A stretch of 64,000 nucleotides of DNA from Verrucomicrobia bacterium GWF2_51_19 (GTDB lineage: Bacteria > Verrucomicrobiota > Verrucomicrobiia > Opitutales > UBA12508). Under the pieces are notes generated by a model. It was not told the origin of the DNA. It did not search any database and saw only the letters and a program-made list of their open reading frames with translations. Positions 4,919 to 56,985 of the stretch are shown here, one piece after another (positions within the stretch are counted from its first letter, which is position 1; each line of letters starts with the position of its first letter). Position numbers and translations under genes: made by a program. Where the stretch lies: NCBI GenBank assembly GCA_001831095.1, contig MIDP01000005.1, positions 30,514 to 94,513 on the forward strand, written 5' to 3'.

Positions 4919-4925
4919 GATGCCT

Positions 4926-5039
4926 AAGACCATTGCAAAATGTCCGCTGCGTTCTCGTCGTTCGGGCTAGGTCACGTACGTCAGTACGCTCCCGTTGCCC
5001 TCGCTCCTCGAGCCTTGCCGGCCATTTTTCAACGGTCTT
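4926..5039 (+). repeat. Type-B element, full length (114 bp)
   Basis: AAGACCATTGCAAAATGTCCGCTGCGTTCTCGTCGTTCGGGCTAGGTCACGTACGTCAGTACGCTCCCGTTGCCCTCGCTCCTCGAGCCTTGCCGGCCATTTTTCAACGGTCTT. Confidence 0.9.
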
Positions 5040-5100
5040 ACCTTTCTTTTAAAATCTTAATTATTAGTACTTCAAGATCTATAATCCATGTGCCCTAGCA

Positions 5101-5693: not shown

Positions 5694-5700
5694 ATTGATG

Positions 5701-5822
5701 AAAAACTGTGCAAAATGGCCTCTAGCTGTGTTCTCGTCGTTCGGGCTAGGTCACGTACGTCAGTACGCTCCCGTTGCCCTCACTCCTCGGGCCTTGCGAT
5801 AGGACCATTTTGCCCAGTTCTT
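5701..5822 (+). repeat. Type-B element, full length with degenerate termini
   Basis: AAAAACTGTGCAAAATGGCCTCTAGCTGTGTTCTCGTCGTTCGGGCTAGGTCACGTACGTCAGTACGCTCCCGTTGCCCTCACTCCTCGGGCCTTGCGATAGGACCATTTTGCCCAGTTCTT. Lies 7 nt from the rpsE ATG. Confidence 0.85.
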
Positions 5823-5865
5823 AGTTGTTGATTGTTACAAATTGAATAAAATAATAAAAATCCAT

Positions 5866-7552: not shown

Positions 7553-7744
7553 AAAGACCTGTGAAAAATGCTGTCAAAATTTGGCTTTGCGCGAGCACGA
7601 TCTGCCGTAGCGGCAGGGCTGGCCCTGCACCCTTGGGATACTGCGTATCCACTTTTAAAAGTGGATGCGTGAGCATCCTAGGGGGTACGGGGGCCGCTGC
7701 CCCCGGCGAAAAACGAGCTTTAACGGCATTTTGCATAGGTCTTT
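7553..7744 (+). repeat. Type-A-long element (192 bp): A element with a 94-bp multi-hairpin module replacing the right half of its central stem
   Basis: The termini and outer arms are identical to type A. The interior differs (see 7613..7706). Confidence 0.9.
7613..7706 (+). repeat. 94-bp nested multi-hairpin module inside A-long
   Basis: GCAGGGCTGGCCCTGCACCCTTGGGATACTGCGTATCCACTTTTAAAAGTGGATGCGTGAGCATCCTAGGGGGTACGGGGGCCGCTGCCCCCGG. It contains consecutive short stems: CAGGGC/GCCCTG, GGATAC/GTATCC, CCACTTTT/AAAAGTGG, GGATGC/GCATCC and GGGGGC/GCCCCC. Confidence 0.85.
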
Positions 7745-8063: not shown

Positions 8064-8179
8064 TAGACTGTGGCAAAACGGCCAACGGCGTTCTCCTTAC
8101 TCGGGCTAGGTCACATACCTGAATACGCTTCCCGTCACCCTCGCTCGCCTGGCATTTCCGTTCCTTTCGCTACGGTCTT
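8064..8179 (+). repeat. Type-B element, full length, degenerate
   Basis: TAGACTGTGGCAAAACGGCCAACGGCGTTCTCCTTACTCGGGCTAGGTCACATACCTGAATACGCTTCCCGTCACCCTCGCTCGCCTGGC...CTACGGTCTT. The central stem is eroded. Lies 6 nt from the rpsN ATG. Confidence 0.75.
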
Positions 8180-9491: not shown

Positions 9492-9497
9492 GTTCTC

Positions 9498-9620
9498 AAA
9501 CCGTTTTAAAATGTCCTCTAGCGGCGTTCTCGTCGTTCGGGCTAGGTCAACGTACCGTCAGTACGCTCCTGTCGCCCTCGCTCCTCGGGCCTGGCTATAG
9601 AACCATTTTTCAACGGTCTT
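9498..9620 (+). repeat. Type-B element, full length (123 bp)
   Basis: AAACCGTTTTAAAATGTCCTCTAGCGGCGTTCTCGTCGTTCGGGCTAGGTCAACGTACCGTCAGTACGCTCCTGTCGCCCTCGCTCCTCGGGCCTGGCTATAGAACCATTTTTCAACGGTCTT. Lies 6 nt from the rplN ATG. Confidence 0.9.
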
Positions 9621-9653
9621 ACCTTTCTTGTTAAATATGAATCATTGATACAT

Positions 9654-26745: not shown

Positions 26746-26827
26746 AGTGTAAAAGGATTGTTTTTAGATACACAGAATACCGATCGATGGAGACCGCTTT
26801 TCAGCGACATTTTCCATCGAACGGTAC

Positions 26828-26949
26828 AAGATCAATGCAAAATGGTCTATAGCGGCGTTCTCGTCGCTCTGGCTAAGTCACGTACCAACGTACGCTCCTG
26901 TCGCCCTCGCTCCTGCGGCCTTGCTCTAGATCCATTTTGCATCGATCTT
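26828..26949 (+). repeat. Type-B element, full length (122 bp)
   Basis: AAGATCAATGCAAAATGGTCTATAGCGGCGTTCTCGTCGCTCTGGCTAAGTCACGTACCAACGTACGCTCCTGTCGCCCTCGCTCCTGCGGCCTTGCTCTAGATCCATTTTGCATCGATCTT. Confidence 0.9.
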
Positions 26950-26971
26950 GGTACGCGTTTAGAAAACTGTA

Positions 26972-26991: not shown

Positions 26992-27026
26992 GAATAAAAG
27001 CTCAATTTCTAGAGTTAAACATCCGT

Positions 27027-27148
27027 AAGACCGCAGTAAAATGACTCTATAGCAAAGCCCGAGAAGTGAGGGCGACAGGAGCCTACTGACGTAGGTGACT
27101 TAGCCCGAACGACGAGAACGCCGCTATTGATCATTTTGCAAAGGTCTT
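27027..27148 (-). repeat. Type-B element, full length, inverted orientation
   Basis: AAGACCGCAGTAAAATGACTCTATAGCAAAGCCCGAGAAGTGAGGGCGACAGGAGCCTACTGACGTAGGTGACTTAGCCCGAACGACGAGAACGCCGCTATTGATCATTTTGCAAAGGTCTT. The central stem is CCTAC/GTAGG. Confidence 0.9.
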
Positions 27149-27159
27149 ATGTGTGTTTG

Positions 27160-28273: not shown

Positions 28274-28465
28274 TTAGACCTGTGAAAAATGGCGTCAAAG
28301 CTTGGCTTTGCGCGAGCATGACCTGCCGCAGCGGCAGGGCTGGCCCTGCACCCTTGGATACTTCGTATCCACTTTTAAAAGTGGATGCATGAGCCCTCCT
28401 AGTGGGTACGGTGGCCGTTGCCCCCGGCGCGAAACGAGCTTTCACGGCATTTTGCATAGGTCTAA
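28274..28465 (+). repeat. Type-A-long element (192 bp), second copy
   Basis: TTAGACCTGTGAAAAATGGCGTCAAAGCTTGGCTTTGCGCGAGCATGACCTGCCGCAGCG[module]CGCGAAACGAGCTTTCACGGCATTTTGCATAGGTCTAA. The CTA in the right terminus is the rplA TAG stop. Confidence 0.9.
28334..28427 (+). repeat. 94-bp multi-hairpin module, second copy (diverged)
   Basis: GCAGGGCTGGCCCTGCACCCTTGGATACTTCGTATCCACTTTTAAAAGTGGATGCATGAGCCCTCCTAGTGGGTACGGTGGCCGTTGCCCCCGG. It has the same length and stem order as 7613..7706, and the GGATAC/GTATCC loop changes from TGC to TTC. Confidence 0.85.
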
Positions 28466-30207: not shown

Positions 30208-30426
30208 TTAACCCGCCAAAGAGTGACGCACCCAAGAACAAACCAAATCGACGACCTGAAACAGAGAAAAGTCGACGATACTGATAAACGCTCCCAGGAT
30301 GATAATACCGATAATCACGACGATCGTCGAATCTTTGAGCTCTGCCTGTGTCGGCCAGGATGCTTTTTTCAATTCCCCGAGGGTTTCTCCCCAGAATATG
30401 CGTATCGATTTAAATGGATTCTTCAT
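30208..30426 (-). CDS. secE: Preprotein translocase SecE
   Basis: 72 aa from ATG 30426 (the ORF track starts 2 codons earlier at a TTG inside the repeat). GELKKASWPT...single TM. Position upstream of nusG. Confidence 0.85.
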   Translation of the reverse strand: MKNPFKSIRIFWGETLGELKKASWPTQAELKDSTIVVIIGIIILGAFISIVDFSLFQVVDLVCSWVRHSLAG

Positions 30427-30430
30427 GAGC

Positions 30431-30675
30431 AAACCTCTTCAAAAGGACCTCTAGCAGCGTTCTCCCTGCAGGCAAATTTGGCAATAAGTTCGTTATCCTT
30501 CGTGATTCGCCTATGTCACGCATTTCAATGCGCTCCAGTCGGCTCACACTCGGAAGCCTGCTTCTTGCCCCATTTGCCTGCAGGTTCGTCGTTCGGGCTA
30601 GGTCACGTACGTCAGAGTACGCTCCCGTCGCCCTCGCTCCTCGGGACCTTGCTATAGGCCATTTTGAAGAGGTTT
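30431..30675 (+). repeat. Type-B element interrupted by a nested 120-bp element
   Basis: AAACCTCTTCAAAAGGACCTCTAGCAGCGTTCTCC[insert]TTCGTCGTTCGGGCTAGGTCACGTACGTCAGAGTACGCTCCCGTCGCCCTCGCTCCTCGGGACCTTGCTATAGGCCATTTTGAAGAGGTTT. Confidence 0.85.
30465..30584 (+). mobile_element. Nested type-D MITE-like insert (120 bp), single copy in window
   Basis: Perfect 13-bp inverted termini CCTGCAGGCAAAT...ATTTGCCTGCAGG, extendable to ~24 bp imperfect. It splits the left arm of a type-B element. Confidence 0.75.
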
Positions 30676-44697: not shown

Positions 44698-47055
44698 ATG
44701 AATAATATCAACGGGAATTTAGGCCGACCGCCAAACCAGCCAAACCAAATTGATAGGCAAAACTTAAGGCAAACTGTTGATCAATTTATGATTGATCTGT
44801 CTGTTAAAGTGCAGCGCGACATTCAAAGTCGAAAAGCAATGTCCGTCGAAGGGCTCGACGTCGAAAGTTCACGCGAAACCCACAGACAACTTGTGGACAT
44901 TCTCGCTCAAAAATCGGTTGGCCAACTAAACGACTTTATTCGCGAACACCCAATTGCCATTTTAAACAAGACAGAAAACGACTTCTTTCTGGATCCGTTT
45001 GTCGTCATCGACGAATACATCCCAAACATTCATATAGATGATAGCCCATTGTGCGTCGCCGTTCAAAATGGTGATTGGAACTCGATCCTCTACCTGTTAA
45101 TCAAACATGTCGACATCAATGCCTGTGGGCGATTCGGAACCCCCTTACGTTACGCAGCTGCAGTTGGCAATGTCGAGATTATGAAGCTTTTAATCAAGGA
45201 AGGAGCCGATGTCAATTTCTTGCCTGAGTTTGTAAATGGAGAACACACGCCTCTTTTTGCTGCAGTTGTAAATAAGAAATACGACACGTTAGAGTATTTG
45301 TTGTCACTTCCAATCATAGATATGGATGGTCCACACGGTATTGTCGATATACCGCAAGAAGACGGCAGTAGTGTTTCACTGGATTCGCCATTAGTCGCCT
45401 CTGTTTTATTGCGCGACGAAAAGGCTTTTGAGCGGCTATTGCGGGCTGGATTCAATGTTAACAAAATCGACGAACAGTTAGATAATAGCCCCATGGAATT
45501 GATAGTAGACTTAAAGTTAAAAACATTTTTGGCTTATGTCTTCAATGTCGCTAAGCCCCAAACCAAGATAGAGGATGCTATAATTGCGTGGCAGGCAATC
45601 CATCGGTCAGAAACAGGCTACAATAAAGGCACTATGGGCGATGAATCCGACTATATATCTTTAATCCAATACCTTTGGACTGGAAATTTTTCTTATCATG
45701 AATCTTCATATAAATTTGCAGAACTGTCAGAGAAAGATTCCTTTTTGTTTCTAGGAGACCGCATCTCAATCGGAGAAAACGGCAATCGCTATTACAATAA
45801 GTATTTCGCAAACATTGATACCTGGGAAATTATCGCAAATACTGTCGGCTTGGGAAATGAAAGAGTCATTCAAGAACCTATATGGATAAAAAATTACCAC
45901 CCAGAGAAAGATATTAATGAACAAGCATTTTGGCTTAAAACAGCCTACGATTGGAAGCGAAAAAAACATGAACTCCCACGTTTTCTCTTCTCTCTTTTAG
46001 AGACCAATGAACGTCAAGAACACGATGTCTTTTCTGTCGCATCTTTTTTTGATCAACTAGACGCCTTGCTGTTTTCTTTTCGCACTTATTTTGGAGTGGA
46101 AAAATTCTTTTCACTCTCCTCTCAAAATGCTTTTGATCAACTACTTTTGCGTCATTTATCATCATTAACGCTAGACAAAACTCCACTAATAGAAAAGGCC
46201 ATGCTAGGAGGCCATGAACCACTCGCGATGCTGTGCGCGAAAGCTACAGTGACTGGCAATACGAAATTATCTTCTGGGCAAACATATATCGAATATGCGG
46301 CCTCTCAAGGCTTATTTTATCTCGTAGAATACTTTTTAGATAAAGGAACTTCTGTTTCTCAAGCCAGCGACATGCTTATTGGCTCGGATTGGGGTGCTCC
46401 CAATTTTCTGATTGGGTTGATTGAAGCTAAGACACATCCATTTACTCCAGACTCAGTTTTGCAACAGAGACTGAGTGAGCGTACGCGATTTCTGTATGAG
46501 TTTGAAACCTTTTTAACAGAGGTCAAAGACAGTAATGATTCCGCCATTCTTGAACAATGTCAGGCATTTCTCAATCAATCAAAGGACTATTTTTCGACAC
46601 GCATAAAGCCCAATAAAGACTTAGATTCAGCAACAAAAACGCCCTGTGAAATCATGATTCAACAAAAACGAGATGAAATTACAGACCGTGGAGATAAACT
46701 GTTGGTTGCGATTCTCTCCAATAACATCAATGATTTTAAAGAAATCCTTTCTTCATTCACGCGCAGTATCTACCACTATAAGACATTCAAAAAGTTAAAT
46801 CATGTTAAAAAAATAGTTGATGTCGATCAGGACAGTATAGATGAATTTTACAAAACCCTCGAAATGCATTACGGTATTCGTCCAATCGAGCAAGAAGAAA
46901 TCGGCAACAGCTTGAACTCTCTTCTGGATTCAAAAATCGAGCTCGACGACGAAAATTTTGAAAAGATTAAAGAGCTCTACCATAGAGCAAAAATGTCAAA
47001 ATGTGTTGACCGCGAAAAAAAAGATCTAAATCTTAAAAAAATTAAGAAAATTTGA
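44698..47055 (+). CDS. Ankyrin-repeat protein, ~785 aa, A+T-rich gene
   Basis: ORF 44647..47055 (TTG) trimmed to the first ATG, MNNINGNLGRPPNQ. ANK repeats are visible (SPLCVAVQNGDWNSILYLLIKHVDINA, GTPLRYAAAVGNVEIMKLLIKEGADVN, HTPLFAAVVNKKYDTLEYLL). The rest has no family I recognise. Confidence 0.75.
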   Translation: MNNINGNLGRPPNQPNQIDRQNLRQTVDQFMIDLSVKVQRDIQSRKAMSVEGLDVESSRETHRQLVDILAQKSVGQLNDFIREHPIAILNKTENDFFLDPFVVIDEYIPNIHIDDSPLCVAVQNGDWNSILYLLIKHVDINACGRFGTPLRYAAAVGNVEIMKLLIKEGADVNFLPEFVNGEHTPLFAAVVNKKYDTLEYLLSLPIIDMDGPHGIVDIPQEDGSSVSLDSPLVASVLLRDEKAFERLLRAGFNVNKIDEQLDNSPMELIVDLKLKTFLAYVFNVAKPQTKIEDAIIAWQAIHRSETGYNKGTMGDESDYISLIQYLWTGNFSYHESSYKFAELSEKDSFLFLGDRISIGENGNRYYNKYFANIDTWEIIANTVGLGNERVIQEPIWIKNYHPEKDINEQAFWLKTAYDWKRKKHELPRFLFSLLETNERQEHDVFSVASFFDQLDALLFSFRTYFGVEKFFSLSSQNAFDQLLLRHLSSLTLDKTPLIEKAMLGGHEPLAMLCAKATVTGNTKLSSGQTYIEYAASQGLFYLVEYFLDKGTSVSQASDMLIGSDWGAPNFLIGLIEAKTHPFTPDSVLQQRLSERTRFLYEFETFLTEVKDSNDSAILEQCQAFLNQSKDYFSTRIKPNKDLDSATKTPCEIMIQQKRDEITDRGDKLLVAILSNNINDFKEILSSFTRSIYHYKTFKKLNHVKKIVDVDQDSIDEFYKTLEMHYGIRPIEQEEIGNSLNSLLDSKIELDDENFEKIKELYHRAKMSKCVDREKKDLNLKKIKKI

Positions 47056-47061
47056 TAAACG

Positions 47062-48354
47062 ATGGCATGTAAAAAGACAGCAATCTTGGGCAACGGTTGC
47101 ACGGGCAAGGCAGTCGCGACGTGGCTCTCCGAAAGAGGAAGCGATTTTGATGTTTTCGACGAAAATGGCCGCAACGATTTTGCCGAAGTCGCCAAAGATT
47201 TCGACACCGTTGTCTGCAGTCCAGGATTTCGCAAAACACACCCATGGCGATCGGCTGCCGAGGCGGCTGGCTGTCGGTGTTTGGGGGAATTGGAGCTTGC
47301 CAGGCCACATTGGAAGGGCAAAGTCATTGCAGTCACCGGCACAAACGGCAAGACATCGCTGGTCGAGTTTTTGGCCTTTGCATTGAAGCGGGCTGGCATC
47401 GACGCGCACGCCGTGGGCAATAACGGCATCCCCTTTATCGGCATTTGCGAGACGGGTACAGCCAACTCCATCGCCGTCTGCGAGGTCAGCTCGTTTCAGT
47501 CCGAGAGCATGACCGCATTCCCAATCGACATCCTCTTGTGGACGAATTTTGCCGAAGACCACATCAAGTACCACGGAAGCCTCGAGGCGTACCTTGAGGC
47601 CAAACGCCGCCTCGTTGACTTTGCCAAAGTCGTTTTTATAGGCGATGACATAACTCGCGAGTCCTTGTATATTCATGAATTGCAAAATGTAAGACATGGG
47701 CAAAATGGCTCTATAGCAAGGCCCGAGGAGCGAGGGCGACAGGAGCCTACTGACGTAGGTGACTTAGCCCGAACGACGAGAACGCAGCTAGAGAACATTT
47801 TGACCATGTCTTATCCTAAGGATTTTTGGACAGATTTCCGCAAAGAAACCTTCGACCTGGCTTGGAACGCTTGGCAGGAGTTGGGCCTGCCATTGGCAAC
47901 TCTGATGGAGGCGGGTGAGGCTTTCACTTTTCCGCCTTTCCGACTCGAGGAGCACAACGTTCATGGCGTACGTATTTTCAACGACTCCAAGGCCACCAAC
48001 TTCGACGCCCTTATAGCTGCCCTGCGCAACCTCGACGGCAGTTATTGGATCGGCGGCGGTTACGACAAGGGTGAAGATTTGGCCAATATCGCCCCGTTAC
48101 TGAATCAAAAAGTGAAAAAGGCCTACTTGGTCGGCGACACCGCTGAAAAAATTGCGGCCGTCCTCGACGTTCCCAGCGTCGTTTTGAGCAGGCTGGAGAT
48201 CGCCATCGAAGCCGCTCTGGCAGACGCAAAGCCAGGTGAAACCATCCTTTTTAGCCCCGGTTACCCAAGCTTTGACCAATTCCAAAATTTCGAAGAACGC
48301 GGAAGATTTTTCAATAAATGTTTGAATAGTTGCCGTTTTGTGCTTAATAAATAG
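47062..48354 (+). CDS. murD: UDP-N-acetylmuramoylalanine--D-glutamate ligase carrying an in-frame repeat insertion
   Basis: 430 aa. VIAVTGTNGKTS P-loop and NDSKATN motif. Residues ~208-250 ([43 protein letters not shown]) are encoded by a type-B element. Confidence 0.88.
   Translation: MACKKTAILGNGCTGKAVATWLSERGSDFDVFDENGRNDFAEVAKDFDTVVCSPGFRKTHPWRSAAEAAGCRCLGELELARPHWKGKVIAVTGTNGKTSLVEFLAFALKRAGIDAHAVGNNGIPFIGICETGTANSIAVCEVSSFQSESMTAFPIDILLWTNFAEDHIKYHGSLEAYLEAKRRLVDFAKVVFIGDDITRESLYIHELQNVRHGQNGSIARPEERGRQEPTDVGDLARTTRTQLENILTMSYPKDFWTDFRKETFDLAWNAWQELGLPLATLMEAGEAFTFPPFRLEEHNVHGVRIFNDSKATNFDALIAALRNLDGSYWIGGGYDKGEDLANIAPLLNQKVKKAYLVGDTAEKIAAVLDVPSVVLSRLEIAIEAALADAKPGETILFSPGYPSFDQFQNFEERGRFFNKCLNSCRFVLNK
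47691..47812 (-). repeat. Type-B element, full length, inside the murD reading frame
   Basis: AAGACATGGGCAAAATGGCTCTATAGCAAGGCCCGAGGAGCGAGGGCGACAGGAGCCTACTGACGTAGGTGACTTAGCCCGAACGACGAGAACGCAGCTAGAGAACATTTTGACCATGTCTT. Flanked by TA on both sides. The ORF stays open through it. Confidence 0.9.
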
Positions 48355-52451: not shown

Positions 52452-52475
52452 ATGGTTTAACAACTGGCGAAAGAA

Positions 52476-52594
52476 AAGACCGTTGAAAAATGCGCCTATA
52501 GCAAGGCCCGAGGAGCGAGGGCCGCTGCGTACGCTGGTACGTGACTCAGCCCGAACGACGAGAACGCAGCTAGAGGACATTTTGCAATGGTCTT
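52476..52594 (-). repeat. Type-B element, full length, covering the 5' end of waaA
   Basis: AAGACCGTTGAAAAATGCGCCTATAGCAAGGCCCGAGGAGCGAGGGCCGCTGCGTACGCTGGTACGTGACTCAGCCCGAACGACGAGAACGCAGCTAGAGGACATTTTGCAATGGTCTT. Confidence 0.9.
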
Positions 52595-53865
52595 TTATTT
52601 TTGCCTACAGAATTCTCTTTCTCCCGCTCTTCCTCCTCGTCTTGCCGTATTACACGTACCGCATGCTCAAGCGTGGCGGCTACGGTCGACACTTTTCCCA
52701 CCGCTTTGGCCTTTTCCCGAAAATCCCCAAACATAAAAAACGCATCTGGATACAGGCTGTAAGCGTCGGGGAAGTGCGCGCCTTACAGCCGTTGATCGAG
52801 GAACTCCAGGCCCAAAATAACTTCGAAATCTTCCTAACAACCACAACCAGCACAGGTCTCCAGACCGCCGAAAAGCTCTTTGCCAACAAGATTGCTTTTA
52901 TCGGAGTCTTTCCACTCAACTTCTGGCTCTTCTCCGCCCTCGCCTGGAGACGCATACAGCCAACTTTCGCCTTTTTAACGGAATCCGAACTCTGGCCCGA
53001 ACACCTCCAACAGGCATGTAGGCACAAGGTTCCACTCTTTCTCCTCAACGGGCGCATGTCGGAAAAATCCTTTCGGCGCTATCAACAAATCCCAACCATC
53101 TGCCGCTGGCTCTTTGCAAAAATCACTCACATTCTCGCCTCCTCCGACGAGAGCCGCCAACACTTTATTCAGCTCGGCTGCCCAGCTGAAAAGATTGTAA
53201 CCGTCGGTAACCTCAAGCTCGACCTCTCTCCAAGCATCCCACCCGACTCAGCAATGATCGCCGCGCAAAAGCGTGCCCTTGGGTTTCCCGAGAACGCCAC
53301 GATTCTTTTTGGCGCATCGACTTGGCCCAGCGAAGAAACGATGTTGGCCAACGTCCTGAAAAACACCCGGCTCTACTCGCCAAATACCTACTTGATTCTC
53401 CTTCCACGACACCCGGAGCGTCGCAACGACATCTCCAACGTTCTCAAGCAGACCCACTTTTCGTTCTCCTTTCGCACCGATAATCCCTCGCAGCCCAACG
53501 ACATCTACGTCGCCGACACAATAGGCGAAATGCACAAACTGCTTCCCTTGGCCGATATCGTGTATGTTGGAAAGAGTATGGCTCCCAATAAGGGCGGCCA
53601 ATCACCCGTCGACGCCGCCCTCTTTGGCAAGCCGATTTTGTACGGCCCCTATATGGACAACTTTAAACCGCTCTGCAAAATGCTCGAAGAACAAGGCGCC
53701 GCGTTCCGCTGCAACAACGAAGAGGCCCTCGAACACTTCATAAAACACCTCTTAGAAGACACCGCTGTTCGAACTTCCATGGGTCACAAAGCAGCCCTCT
53801 GGCAACAATCCAACCAGGGCGCCACCGCCAAAACCCTCGAGGCCCTCAAAGCCCTCGGTGTGTGA
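52483..53865 (+). CDS. waaA: 3-deoxy-D-manno-octulosonic acid (Kdo) transferase; start codon uncertain and inside a repeat
   Basis: WaaA core starts about at FAYRILFLPLFLLVLPYYTYRMLKRGGYG...RIWIQAVSVGEVRALQPLIEEL. The only in-frame starts are TTG 52483 and TTG 52582, and both lie inside the type-B element. No in-frame ATG occurs before the conserved region. Confidence 0.8.
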   Translation: MKNAPIARPEERGPLRTLVRDSARTTRTQLEDILQWSFIFAYRILFLPLFLLVLPYYTYRMLKRGGYGRHFSHRFGLFPKIPKHKKRIWIQAVSVGEVRALQPLIEELQAQNNFEIFLTTTTSTGLQTAEKLFANKIAFIGVFPLNFWLFSALAWRRIQPTFAFLTESELWPEHLQQACRHKVPLFLLNGRMSEKSFRRYQQIPTICRWLFAKITHILASSDESRQHFIQLGCPAEKIVTVGNLKLDLSPSIPPDSAMIAAQKRALGFPENATILFGASTWPSEETMLANVLKNTRLYSPNTYLILLPRHPERRNDISNVLKQTHFSFSFRTDNPSQPNDIYVADTIGEMHKLLPLADIVYVGKSMAPNKGGQSPVDAALFGKPILYGPYMDNFKPLCKMLEEQGAAFRCNNEEALEHFIKHLLEDTAVRTSMGHKAALWQQSNQGATAKTLEALKALGV

Positions 53866-55662: not shown

Positions 55663-56985
55663 ATGGAGTACCAATATTTATCAAAGCTCATCGACAACAG
55701 CATCGAAGCTTCCACGCCGCTTGAAATCAAGGGTAGGGTGCTGCAGGTTGTTGGAACGATCATCAAGGCTTTTGTTCCCGGTGTGAAGATCGGCGAGCTG
55801 TGTTCGTTGAAAAATCCGTATGAGAAATTTGAGCTGTTGGCGGAAGTTGTTGGCTTTGAGCAACAAGCAGCACTTTTGACGCCCCTTGGAGACCTCATGG
55901 GGATTTCGTCGGCAACCGAGGTGATTCCGACAGGGAAAGTCCACACAGTGCCGGTGGGGCCAAAGCTGCTGGGCCGCGTTTTGGACGGTCTGGGACGGCC
56001 GTTGGATGAGGATGTCAAGGGTCCCCTAGAGCCGAAAGGCTACTATCCCGTTTACGCACCGCCACCCAACGCGATGAAACGGACCATTATTGCCAAACCG
56101 ATCTCGCTTGGCCTGCGCGCGCTCGACGGCCTCTTGACGTGCGGCGAAGGGCAACGTATGGGTATTTTTGCGGCGGCGGGCGGCGGTAAAAGTACGCTGA
56201 TGGCCCAGATCATTCGCAATACGAACGCGGATATCGTTGTTTTGGCACTCGTCGGCGAACGTGGCCGCGAAGTGCGCGAATTCATCGAGCACGACCTCGG
56301 TGAAGAGGGCCTCAAGCGTTCGGTGCTCGTCATTTCGACATCGGATCGGCCATCCATGGAGCGGCTCAAGGCGGCTTACGTGGCGACGGCGATAGCCGAG
56401 TATTTCCGCGATCAGGGCAGTCGTGTCCTGCTTTTGATGGACTCCGTAACGCGTTTTGGACGCGCGCAACGCGAGATCGGTCTGGCGGCGGGTGAGCCTC
56501 CGACGCGGCGTGGATTTCCGCCATCCGTTTTTTCGACTTTACCACAGTTGATGGAACGAGCAGGGCAGTCCGAAAAGGGCTCCATTACAGCTCTTTACAC
56601 GGTCCTCGTGGAGGGCGACGATATGACAGAGCCAATTGCCGACGAGACGCGCTCCATTCTCGACGGCCACATCATCCTTTCCAGAAAGCTCGCTGGCGCC
56701 AATCATTACCCGGCCATCGACGTTTTGGCTAGTATCAGCCGCGTCATGACCAACATTGTCCCGAAGGAACACAAACAGGCCGCCAGTCGCCTCCGACACC
56801 TGTTGGCCAAGTACGAAGAAGTGGAGCTACTCCTGCGCATCGGCGAGTACAAAAAGGGCTCCGACGCCGAGACCGACGAGGCCATCGAAAAACACGACGC
56901 CATTTTGAGCTTTCTCAAACAAGGTCTCGACGAGAAGTCCACCTTCGATGAGACGGTACGGGCGCTGATTGAGACGGTCTTATAA
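55663..56985 (+). CDS. FliI/SctN-family type III secretion ATPase (orphan)
   Basis: 440 aa. Walker [14 protein letters not shown], Walker [13 protein letters not shown]. The family-typical [16 protein letters not shown] and [13 protein letters not shown] are also present. Confidence 0.9.

Follow-up and report, generated by a model that had tools for sequence, protein, structure and literature searches.

A dispersed palindromic repeat within the open reading frame of murD in Verrucomicrobia bacterium GWF2_51_19

The Correia/NEMIS elements of Neisseria and the ERIC elements of Yersinia are abundant repeats of ~100-150 nt with inverted termini, which are co-transcribed, form long RNA hairpins and often lie near the 5' ends of genes; they have conserved terminal repeats and TA duplications. 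REPINs consist of two short inverted REPs (repetitive extragenic palindromes) round a variable spacer and are mobilised by RAYT transposases. In-frame fusions caused by intragenic MITEs (transposable elements of the miniature inverted-repeat type) were described as 'not unusual' in a 2024 review, which named ERIC, BOX, QMITE1 and Anabaena MITEs (PMC10969869). Rickettsia palindromic elements (RPEs) had an unusually high fusion frequency, with close to half of the R. conorii copies lying inside open reading frames (ORFs) (PMC10969869). Here, a 64,000-nt stretch of the Verrucomicrobia bacterium GWF2_51_19 genome (contig MIDP01000005.1, positions 30,514 to 94,513 of the forward strand; hereafter the window) was analyzed, in which one copy of a dispersed hairpin repeat, the type-B element, lies inside murD. 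The host is an Opitutae-type verrucomicrobial metagenome-assembled genome (MAG), a lineage unrelated to Rickettsia, as had been stated in the initial annotation of the window. One paper places the genome with an Opitutae-type order.

The murD gene and the copy inside it were delimited as follows.

47062..48354, + strand: murD ORF, 430 codons plus stop, open across the repeat (ORF list, TIGR01087)
47062..47689, + strand: native murD, coding for the N-terminal domain and the larger part of the central ATP-binding domain (invariant columns; HMMER alignment to E. coli MurD)
47690..47813, + strand: complete B-type palindromic repeat of 124 nt, spanning codons 210-251 in the only sense frame of the element that has no stop
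47814..48354, + strand: native murD, end of the central domain and C-terminal domain

The ORF matched the equivalog TIGR01087 with 274.3 bits (cutoff 211.95), covering residues 7-422, and its 430-aa product showed 100% identity to the annotated MurD OHE74416.1 of Verrucomicrobia bacterium GWF2_51_19. Pfam analysis of the product revealed Mur_ligase_M at residues 91-196 and Mur_ligase_C at residues 294-399; the Mur_ligase_M match comprised profile positions 1-126 of 200 and ended just ahead of the insert region. The native part upstream of the repeat encoded the P-loop GTNGKTS (residues 93-99), E141, H167 and K181, while the part downstream encoded T263 (where a conserved Asn was replaced), R294, D308-S309-K310, S398-P399 and R413-G414. 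The motifs VIAVTGTNGKTS and NDSKATN were present on the two sides, and the earlier description of ordinary MurD sequence around the repeat was thus borne out.

The B family was collected from the window and 57 loci (L001-L057) of Joint Genome Institute (JGI) metagenome contigs from two data sets, ~0.6 Mb altogether. The 57 loci, found with a pattern from the conserved interior of the element, were further contigs from this organism (G+C content 51%, 99.7-100% mutual identity, no gene overlap with the window). The family had 93 full-length hits, of which 75 were unique, with a length of 124-127 nt. Against the hidden Markov model (HMM) of the family, the murD copy was aligned by nhmmer at positions 2-125 with 125.6 bits, and in blastn it shared 80-88% nucleotide identity with about 12 other copies of the window (E-values 1e-19 to 1e-39). 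It was therefore a genuine copy of a dispersed family, and the ~41 residues between the native parts were encoded by the repeat, as first proposed. The proposal that the ORF was open across a complete type-B copy also agreed with these data, and the boundaries first given (47691-47812) were within 1-2 nt of those found here. The element started at the second base of codon 210 and ended at the second base of codon 251, encoding a 42-residue stretch rich in Arg, Glu and Thr. The identity of the repeat was far beyond chance; the 41-codon open frame was not, because shuffled copies had equally many stop-free frames. The murD copy ranked 57th among the 75 in its identity to their consensus (83%; family median 86%) and did not look especially young. 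As RNA, it folded into one long imperfect hairpin (-52.4 kcal/mol, z = -6.35), and folding as DNA gave z = -5.1. The tryptic peptides expected from MurD across the junctions were ESLYIHELQNVR and TQLENILTMSYPK.

A clean insertion of ~40 aa had been expected from an alignment with MurD orthologs; the orthologs had residues at this position. A search among 5.8 billion proteins showed that the nearest homologues were MurDs of Opitutales/Opitutaceae with ~40% identity (none above ~41%). The spacing of K181 and R294, both invariant, was compared with that of 117 MurD orthologs (411-498 aa, median 430, the same as the query). It was 112 residues in the query and 86-159 in the orthologs, with a median of 89 and exactly 89 in 76 of them. 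Without the 41 element-encoded residues the spacing would be 71, which was 15 below the shortest ortholog. When the element-deleted query was aligned to the ortholog profile, 10 + 7 profile positions flanking the insertion point were deleted. Both the spacing and the profile alignment ruled out a clean gain of ~41 aa, and on these two grounds ~17 native residues were missing, with a net change of ~+23 aa. Since the element has 124 nt (3n+1), the frame would have been kept only if the native sequence lost with it likewise amounted to 3n+1 nt.

An AlphaFold2 model of MurD was built with a 118-sequence alignment. The predicted local distance difference test (pLDDT) score was 87.2 and the predicted template modelling (pTM) score was 0.85, with 301 residues at pLDDT of at least 90. 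Foldseek analysis showed that the best PDB matches were E. coli and P. aeruginosa MurD, with template modelling (TM) scores of 0.76-0.77 (E. coli: E = 2e-27), and the three-domain Mur-ligase fold was present in the model. Values of pLDDT below 50 were found only at residues 215-221 and 223-250, which corresponded to the insert, part of which was drawn as a helix. In the HMMER alignment, the insert lay opposite residues ~218-258 of E. coli MurD. In the 1997 crystal structure, residues ~215-262 of the E. coli enzyme form a small antiparallel sheet beside the central domain. The model of the Horticoccus luteus ortholog had a pLDDT of 96.2, and its native segment contained a helix (212-220), a strand (229-232) and short helices at pLDDT 91-98. 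Modelling had been suggested as a way to see whether the insert is a surface loop; the insert was the only low-confidence stretch of MurD, but the native segment of the ortholog was structured.

The catalytic set of Mur ligases comprises the P-loop Lys, a Glu, a His, a carbamylated Lys, two Asn, an Arg and an Asp (Bouhss et al.). In the MurD studied here, K97, E141, H167, K181, R294 and D308 were present, and the invariant columns G93-T98, E141, H167, K181, R294, D308-S309-K310, S398-P399 and R413-G414 were kept (alignments A1, A2). The position of E. coli N271 was not Asn in the Opitutae orthologs either. Among the well-conserved columns, 24 deviated in this MurD; many of the changes were conservative (S/T, D/E, L/I, F/Y), and the non-conservative ones included R170Y, N263T, H293F and G338E.

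The murD copy could be divided into the following parts.

47690..47707, + strand: left terminal arm TAAGACATGGGCAAAATG, complementary to the right arm except for 1 mismatch in 18
47708..47744, + strand: conserved interior, 5' half, encoding ...SIARPEERGRQE...; mostly unpaired, with conservation of 90% or more in the majority of columns over the 75 copies
47745..47760, + strand: apical stem-loop GCCTAC-TGAC-GTAGGT, with two covarying subfamilies
47761..47795, + strand: conserved interior, 3' half, the source of the scan pattern TGACYYAGCCCGARCGACGAGAAC
47796..47813, + strand: right terminal arm CATTTTGACCATGTCTTA
47806..47808, + strand: in-frame ATG (Met249) in the right arm, 8 nt ahead of the element end

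The RNAalifold consensus of the 75 copies (alignment A3, including window 47689-47813) contained 30 pairs, 20 of which had compensatory double changes. At column 11/130 the pairs were UA in 35 copies, AU in 12, CG in 11 and GC in 8; at the apical column 64/78, G-C was found in 52 copies and C-G in 22. The terminal arms varied between copies yet paired within each, while the asymmetric unpaired interior was at least 90% conserved. In the murD copy, whose terminal arms occurred in no other copy, the left arm had subterminal ACATGG instead of the consensus CCGTTG, and the opposite arm compensated for it. The covarying stems and the conserved interior suggest that the structure of the RNA or single-stranded DNA is constrained, or that repair is templated by the hairpin. 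By eye, the only conserved ATG-initiated ORF in the element was one of 3 codons, ATG-NNN-CTA-TAG, in the left arm. The B family was small, non-coding and dispersed in many copies, as MITEs are; its conservation pattern was the opposite of that of classical MITEs, in which the ends are conserved. No consistent direct repeat indicating a target-site duplication was found at the flanks, although T/A bases often bracketed the element. No partner transposase was identified, and the scan for distant terminus pairs was too noisy to interpret. Rfam analysis of the window revealed only two tRNAs, and the element had no match even with the threshold relaxed to E <= 1.

A copy was counted as internal when the open frame of a recognisable protein ran through it and extended for 40 codons or more to either side. 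By this definition, only the murD copy was internal to a real gene (1 of the 75 unique copies). Each copy was also scored for a sense ORF of 80 aa or longer whose start lay at -12 to +60 nt from the right end of the element on the same strand. Such a start was found for 52 of 74 copies, mostly at +2 to +8, while the control, with ORFs diverging from the left end, gave 14 of 74. The B copies thus behaved like 5'-leader elements and were strongly oriented and positioned. The phases of the downstream start codons relative to the element frame were uniform (11/15/11), without preference. Other frames of B had been reported to be stop-free; the number of stop-free frames per copy (1.52) was equal to that of shuffled copies (1.52), as given by base composition alone. 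The family therefore showed no sign of selection for translation, with the start phase uniform and the open frames equal to the shuffles.

Four further candidates for a copy inside a gene were rejected. In L019 9413-10843 (BamD-like lipoprotein) and L009 10419-11537, the real starts lay just past the element, and L043 2518-3327 and L035 14258-14686 were 5'-end cases or spurious ORFs without a family match. The ORF L009:10419-11537 (+ strand) encoded a GFO/IDH/MocA oxidoreductase and had an in-phase B copy at its 5' end with the variant arms AAGGGGCCC/GGGCCCCTT, its Rossmann domain beginning at residue 68; it was a 5'-end case comparable to waaA.

The closest described system, the RPE (Ogata et al. 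2000, as cited in PMC10969869), resembled the present case in that a dispersed palindrome of ~100-150 bp has an in-frame copy in a housekeeping gene whose ORF stays open. It differed in that only 1 of the 75 B copies was intragenic, in that there was no excess of open frames, in the replacement of native residues, and in the phylum. Peptide addition in the manner of RPEs had been put forward as the behaviour of the repeat; at the level of the family it failed, because intragenic copies were few and open frames were at the level of chance, and the dispersed palindrome was what the two families had in common. This comparison of B with RPE is one of features and host. ERIC/IRU, BOX, Coxiella QMITE1 and the Anabaena MITEs were similar to B as mostly intergenic hairpin repeats with occasional in-frame read-through, and differed in sequence and host. 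B was similar to Correia/NEMIS and ERIC in length (~125 nt), inverted termini, hairpin formation and location near gene 5' ends, but its arms were hypervariable and compensated, its interior was conserved and it had no consistent target duplication. Like the REPIN/REP populations, B was a lineage-confined hairpin population with stems kept by paired changes, but it had a long conserved interior. In-frame read-through of repeats is already known in Rickettsia and other bacteria; new here are the phylum, the host gene and the replacement of native residues. ERIC/IRU, BOX, QMITE1 and the Anabaena MITEs are not known to have been reported from a Mur ligase or from Verrucomicrobia.

The murD locus is probably best explained by a tolerated and translated insertion-plus-deletion in the peripheral part of the central domain, with MurD remaining functional. 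A lineage-specific non-coding hairpin repeat (B, ~125 nt, MITE- or REPIN-like, normally a 5' leader) would have landed inside murD, at a peripheral site where the central domain is least conserved, and the same or later events would have removed ~17 native residues. The repeat stands in its only stop-free sense frame, which leaves murD as a single 430-codon ORF, and ribosomes would read through the hairpin. In the product, the native strand-and-turn segment would be swapped for 42 residues, probably disordered or loosely helical. We infer that catalysis is retained because all ATP-, Mg- and substrate-binding motifs outside the segment are intact. The insertion would then be a tolerated accident that survived purifying selection, neither adaptive nor typical of the family. 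Several observations weigh against this explanation. According to the models, the element took the place of a peripheral but ordered piece and did not decorate a floppy loop, since the native segment was confidently structured in Horticoccus luteus. MurD matched 99 of the 123 columns that were at least 90% conserved (80.5%), the lowest of 118 MurDs (median 97.6%). The Asn of the QRENF motif, also at least 90% conserved, was Thr263; this site aligned to E. coli N268, which we take to be an invariant Mur-ligase residue. murD was not part of a division and cell wall (dcw) cluster, its neighbours coding for an ankyrin-repeat protein and a LysM protein, and murE began at the P-loop and lacked profile positions 1-105, its N-terminal domain. 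Nor did the search among 5.8 billion proteins yield a MurD above ~41% identity that could have shown an empty site. Much of this is also what speaks for an inactive or decaying murD, in which a piece of the central domain was destroyed and the gene persists as an unbroken pseudogene, with the peptidoglycan pathway under relaxed selection in a perhaps host-associated organism. To the divergence at conserved columns and the shortened murE are added the ~17 lost residues, which include the strand equivalent to P0045 residues 229-232, the ankyrin-repeat protein and type III secretion system (T3SS)-type ATPase close by, and a genome heavily colonised by repeats. Even so, a 430-codon ORF without stop or frameshift is improbable in a long-dead gene, every invariant catalytic residue was kept, most deviations were conservative, the AlphaFold2 model was confident outside the insert, and the wall-related gene glmS and a LysM protein gene were in the neighbourhood. 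We regard decay as unlikely, though as the most serious competitor.

Co-option of the repeat, by which the hairpin regulates murD (through RNase III processing, ribosome pausing or initiation at Met249) or the peptide has gained a function, was judged improbable. It would fit the ~70% of B copies that end a few nt before start codons, the in-frame ATG 8 nt inside the right arm, the unusual arms of the murD copy that are nevertheless paired, and the age of this copy, which is not among the youngest-looking. But the case occurred once, and no stop lies ahead of Met249, so full-length translation is the default; the copy was carried by no relatives and hence has no support from conservation, the insert was modelled at low confidence, and the family showed no sign of selection for coding. 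Most of the other B copies have a gene start only a few nt away from the right end, and the use of the Met249 ATG as a start is speculation only. It is likewise distinctly improbable that B is a structure-constrained 5'-leader RNA module whose murD copy serves as an internal processing or initiation site that tunes or splits MurD expression, for example with a C-terminal fragment from Met249; this was considered because ~70% of the copies lie in sense before starts, the covarying stems surround a near-invariant asymmetric internal loop, and several intercistronic junctions of the ribosomal-protein operons are occupied by copies. An assembly artefact, in which the 124-nt repeat was misplaced or collapsed into murD, would be conceivable because the genome is a MAG built from short reads and has over 100 near-identical repeats, at which misassembly classically occurs. 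However, both flanks were murD in the same orientation and a compatible frame, and the murD copy had unique arms. The 7,293 bp with murD and the insert were found at 100% identity on a 72.8-kb ENA scaffold (the longest contig for the protein was 116 kb), so that NCBI and ENA scaffolds of different length carried the identical sequence, and an artefact would leave the 17 missing native residues unexplained. Misassembly at murD is thus very unlikely, and the probable explanation remains the tolerated insertion with loss of native residues.

If the product is made and active, a Mur ligase can lose a structured segment at the periphery of its ATP-binding domain and have a repeat-encoded stretch of 42 residues in its place. 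The read-through of repeats in housekeeping genes known from Rickettsia would then also occur in the Planctomycetes-Verrucomicrobia-Chlamydiae (PVC) superphylum, with an element that is apparently unrelated (a statement made without comparison to RPE sequences), and murD would offer a natural example with which to test the tolerance of proteins to the sudden replacement of a segment. If murD is decaying, the locus would be a sign that cell-wall synthesis is being eroded in an uncultured Opitutae lineage that may live in association with a host. As a single event of a documented phenomenon, the murD case has a modest general impact; the placement of B before start codons and its covarying stems are the more intriguing lead.

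Further B-type copies and related loci were as follows.

4925-5041, 5700-5824, 8065-8179, 9496-9622, 26827-26951, 27025-27149, 42678-42801 and 52474-52595: B-type copies of the window
52474..52595, + strand: B copy at the 5' end of waaA, with the same frame open into waaA and no in-frame ATG in the element
L038:3400-3579, L054:4699-4881 and L010:2749-2928: loci with a ~60-aa stretch of a 144-aa ORF of the window

The waaA copy had been cited as a second case with the same frame open. The open frame was found; this was a 5'-end case, however, with the Kdo-transferase domain beginning at residue 70 of the mechanical ORF and a hydrophobic membrane anchor directly after the element, and the waaA copy is no evidence for translation of the element. 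No in-frame ATG was present ahead of the anchor (52474-52640). The candidate starts were TTG 52581 in the right arm and TTG 52483 in the left arm, the latter lying 10 nt after GAAAG. It is thus probable that the start codon of waaA, at the least, comes from the repeat.

The element pattern gave no hits in 185,579 species-representative genomes, which did not include the source genome, and a looser two-part pattern gave 3 hits in the same genomes, all of which were rejected by the family HMM. A search for element-encoded peptides in other proteins had been proposed. A profile of 12 such peptides returned only three short hypothetical proteins (59-71 aa) of the same organism; MurD itself was not returned, and the protein index was therefore not exhaustive for such short queries. 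Annotations of the three proteins existed as well in a re-assembled MAG, 'Opitutae bacterium' DHV51, in which MurD was without an accession.

Near murD, an 802-aa ankyrin-repeat protein was encoded directly upstream (44647-47055) and a T3SS/flagellar-type ATPase at 55663-56985; together with the repeat load, these give a hint of a host-associated lifestyle. The only other Mur ligase found in the genome was murE at L009:8515-9738 (- strand; NF001126, 445 bits). It started 18 nt downstream of tRNA-Arg(ACG) (L009:9757-9833, - strand), with ribosomal protein L28 beyond on the other strand, and its shape could reflect truncation or an erosion of the peptidoglycan pathway.

The 10 nt to the left of the murD copy (47680-47689) were TTGCAAAATG, which resembled the left-arm motif ATGCAAAATG of the element. 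The left flank ...AAAATG also occurred at a few other copies (L002/L051, L016). The likeness of TTGCAAAATG to ATGCAAAATG could reflect a target preference or a partial duplication.

A hairpin that always bridges a Shine-Dalgarno-like GAAAGG to the start was considered and rejected: this flank was found in 18 of the 75 copies, a CAACGA-like flank in 13 and neither in 40. A- and B-type hairpins were present at many junctions of the ribosomal-protein operons (window 1-30000, minus strand, rpoB/rpoC region), among them those immediately upstream of L15 and following L23. A composite of an A element, a linker of ~22 nt (TATTAACAACTTACGAAAGG), a B element and then ATG recurred in the window and in many loci. 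In some copies the outer flanks were also complementary and G+C-rich and were followed by T-runs (L029:742-867, L032:9919-10045, L044:8525-8648, L049:3592-3715 and window 40046-40172), so that the element looks as if it were seated in the loop of a terminator-like hairpin. A-type variants of ~190 nt carried an extra palindromic module, CCTTGGGATAC...GTATCCACTTTTAAAAGTGGATGC...GGGGGCCGCTGCCCCC (window 7631-7704, 28351-28425 and 40331-40377). The 144-aa ORF at window 30223-30657 (+ strand) had no family match, and its ~60-aa stretch was 68-75% identical in the three loci given above, which may point to another type of repeat or to a small family of genes.

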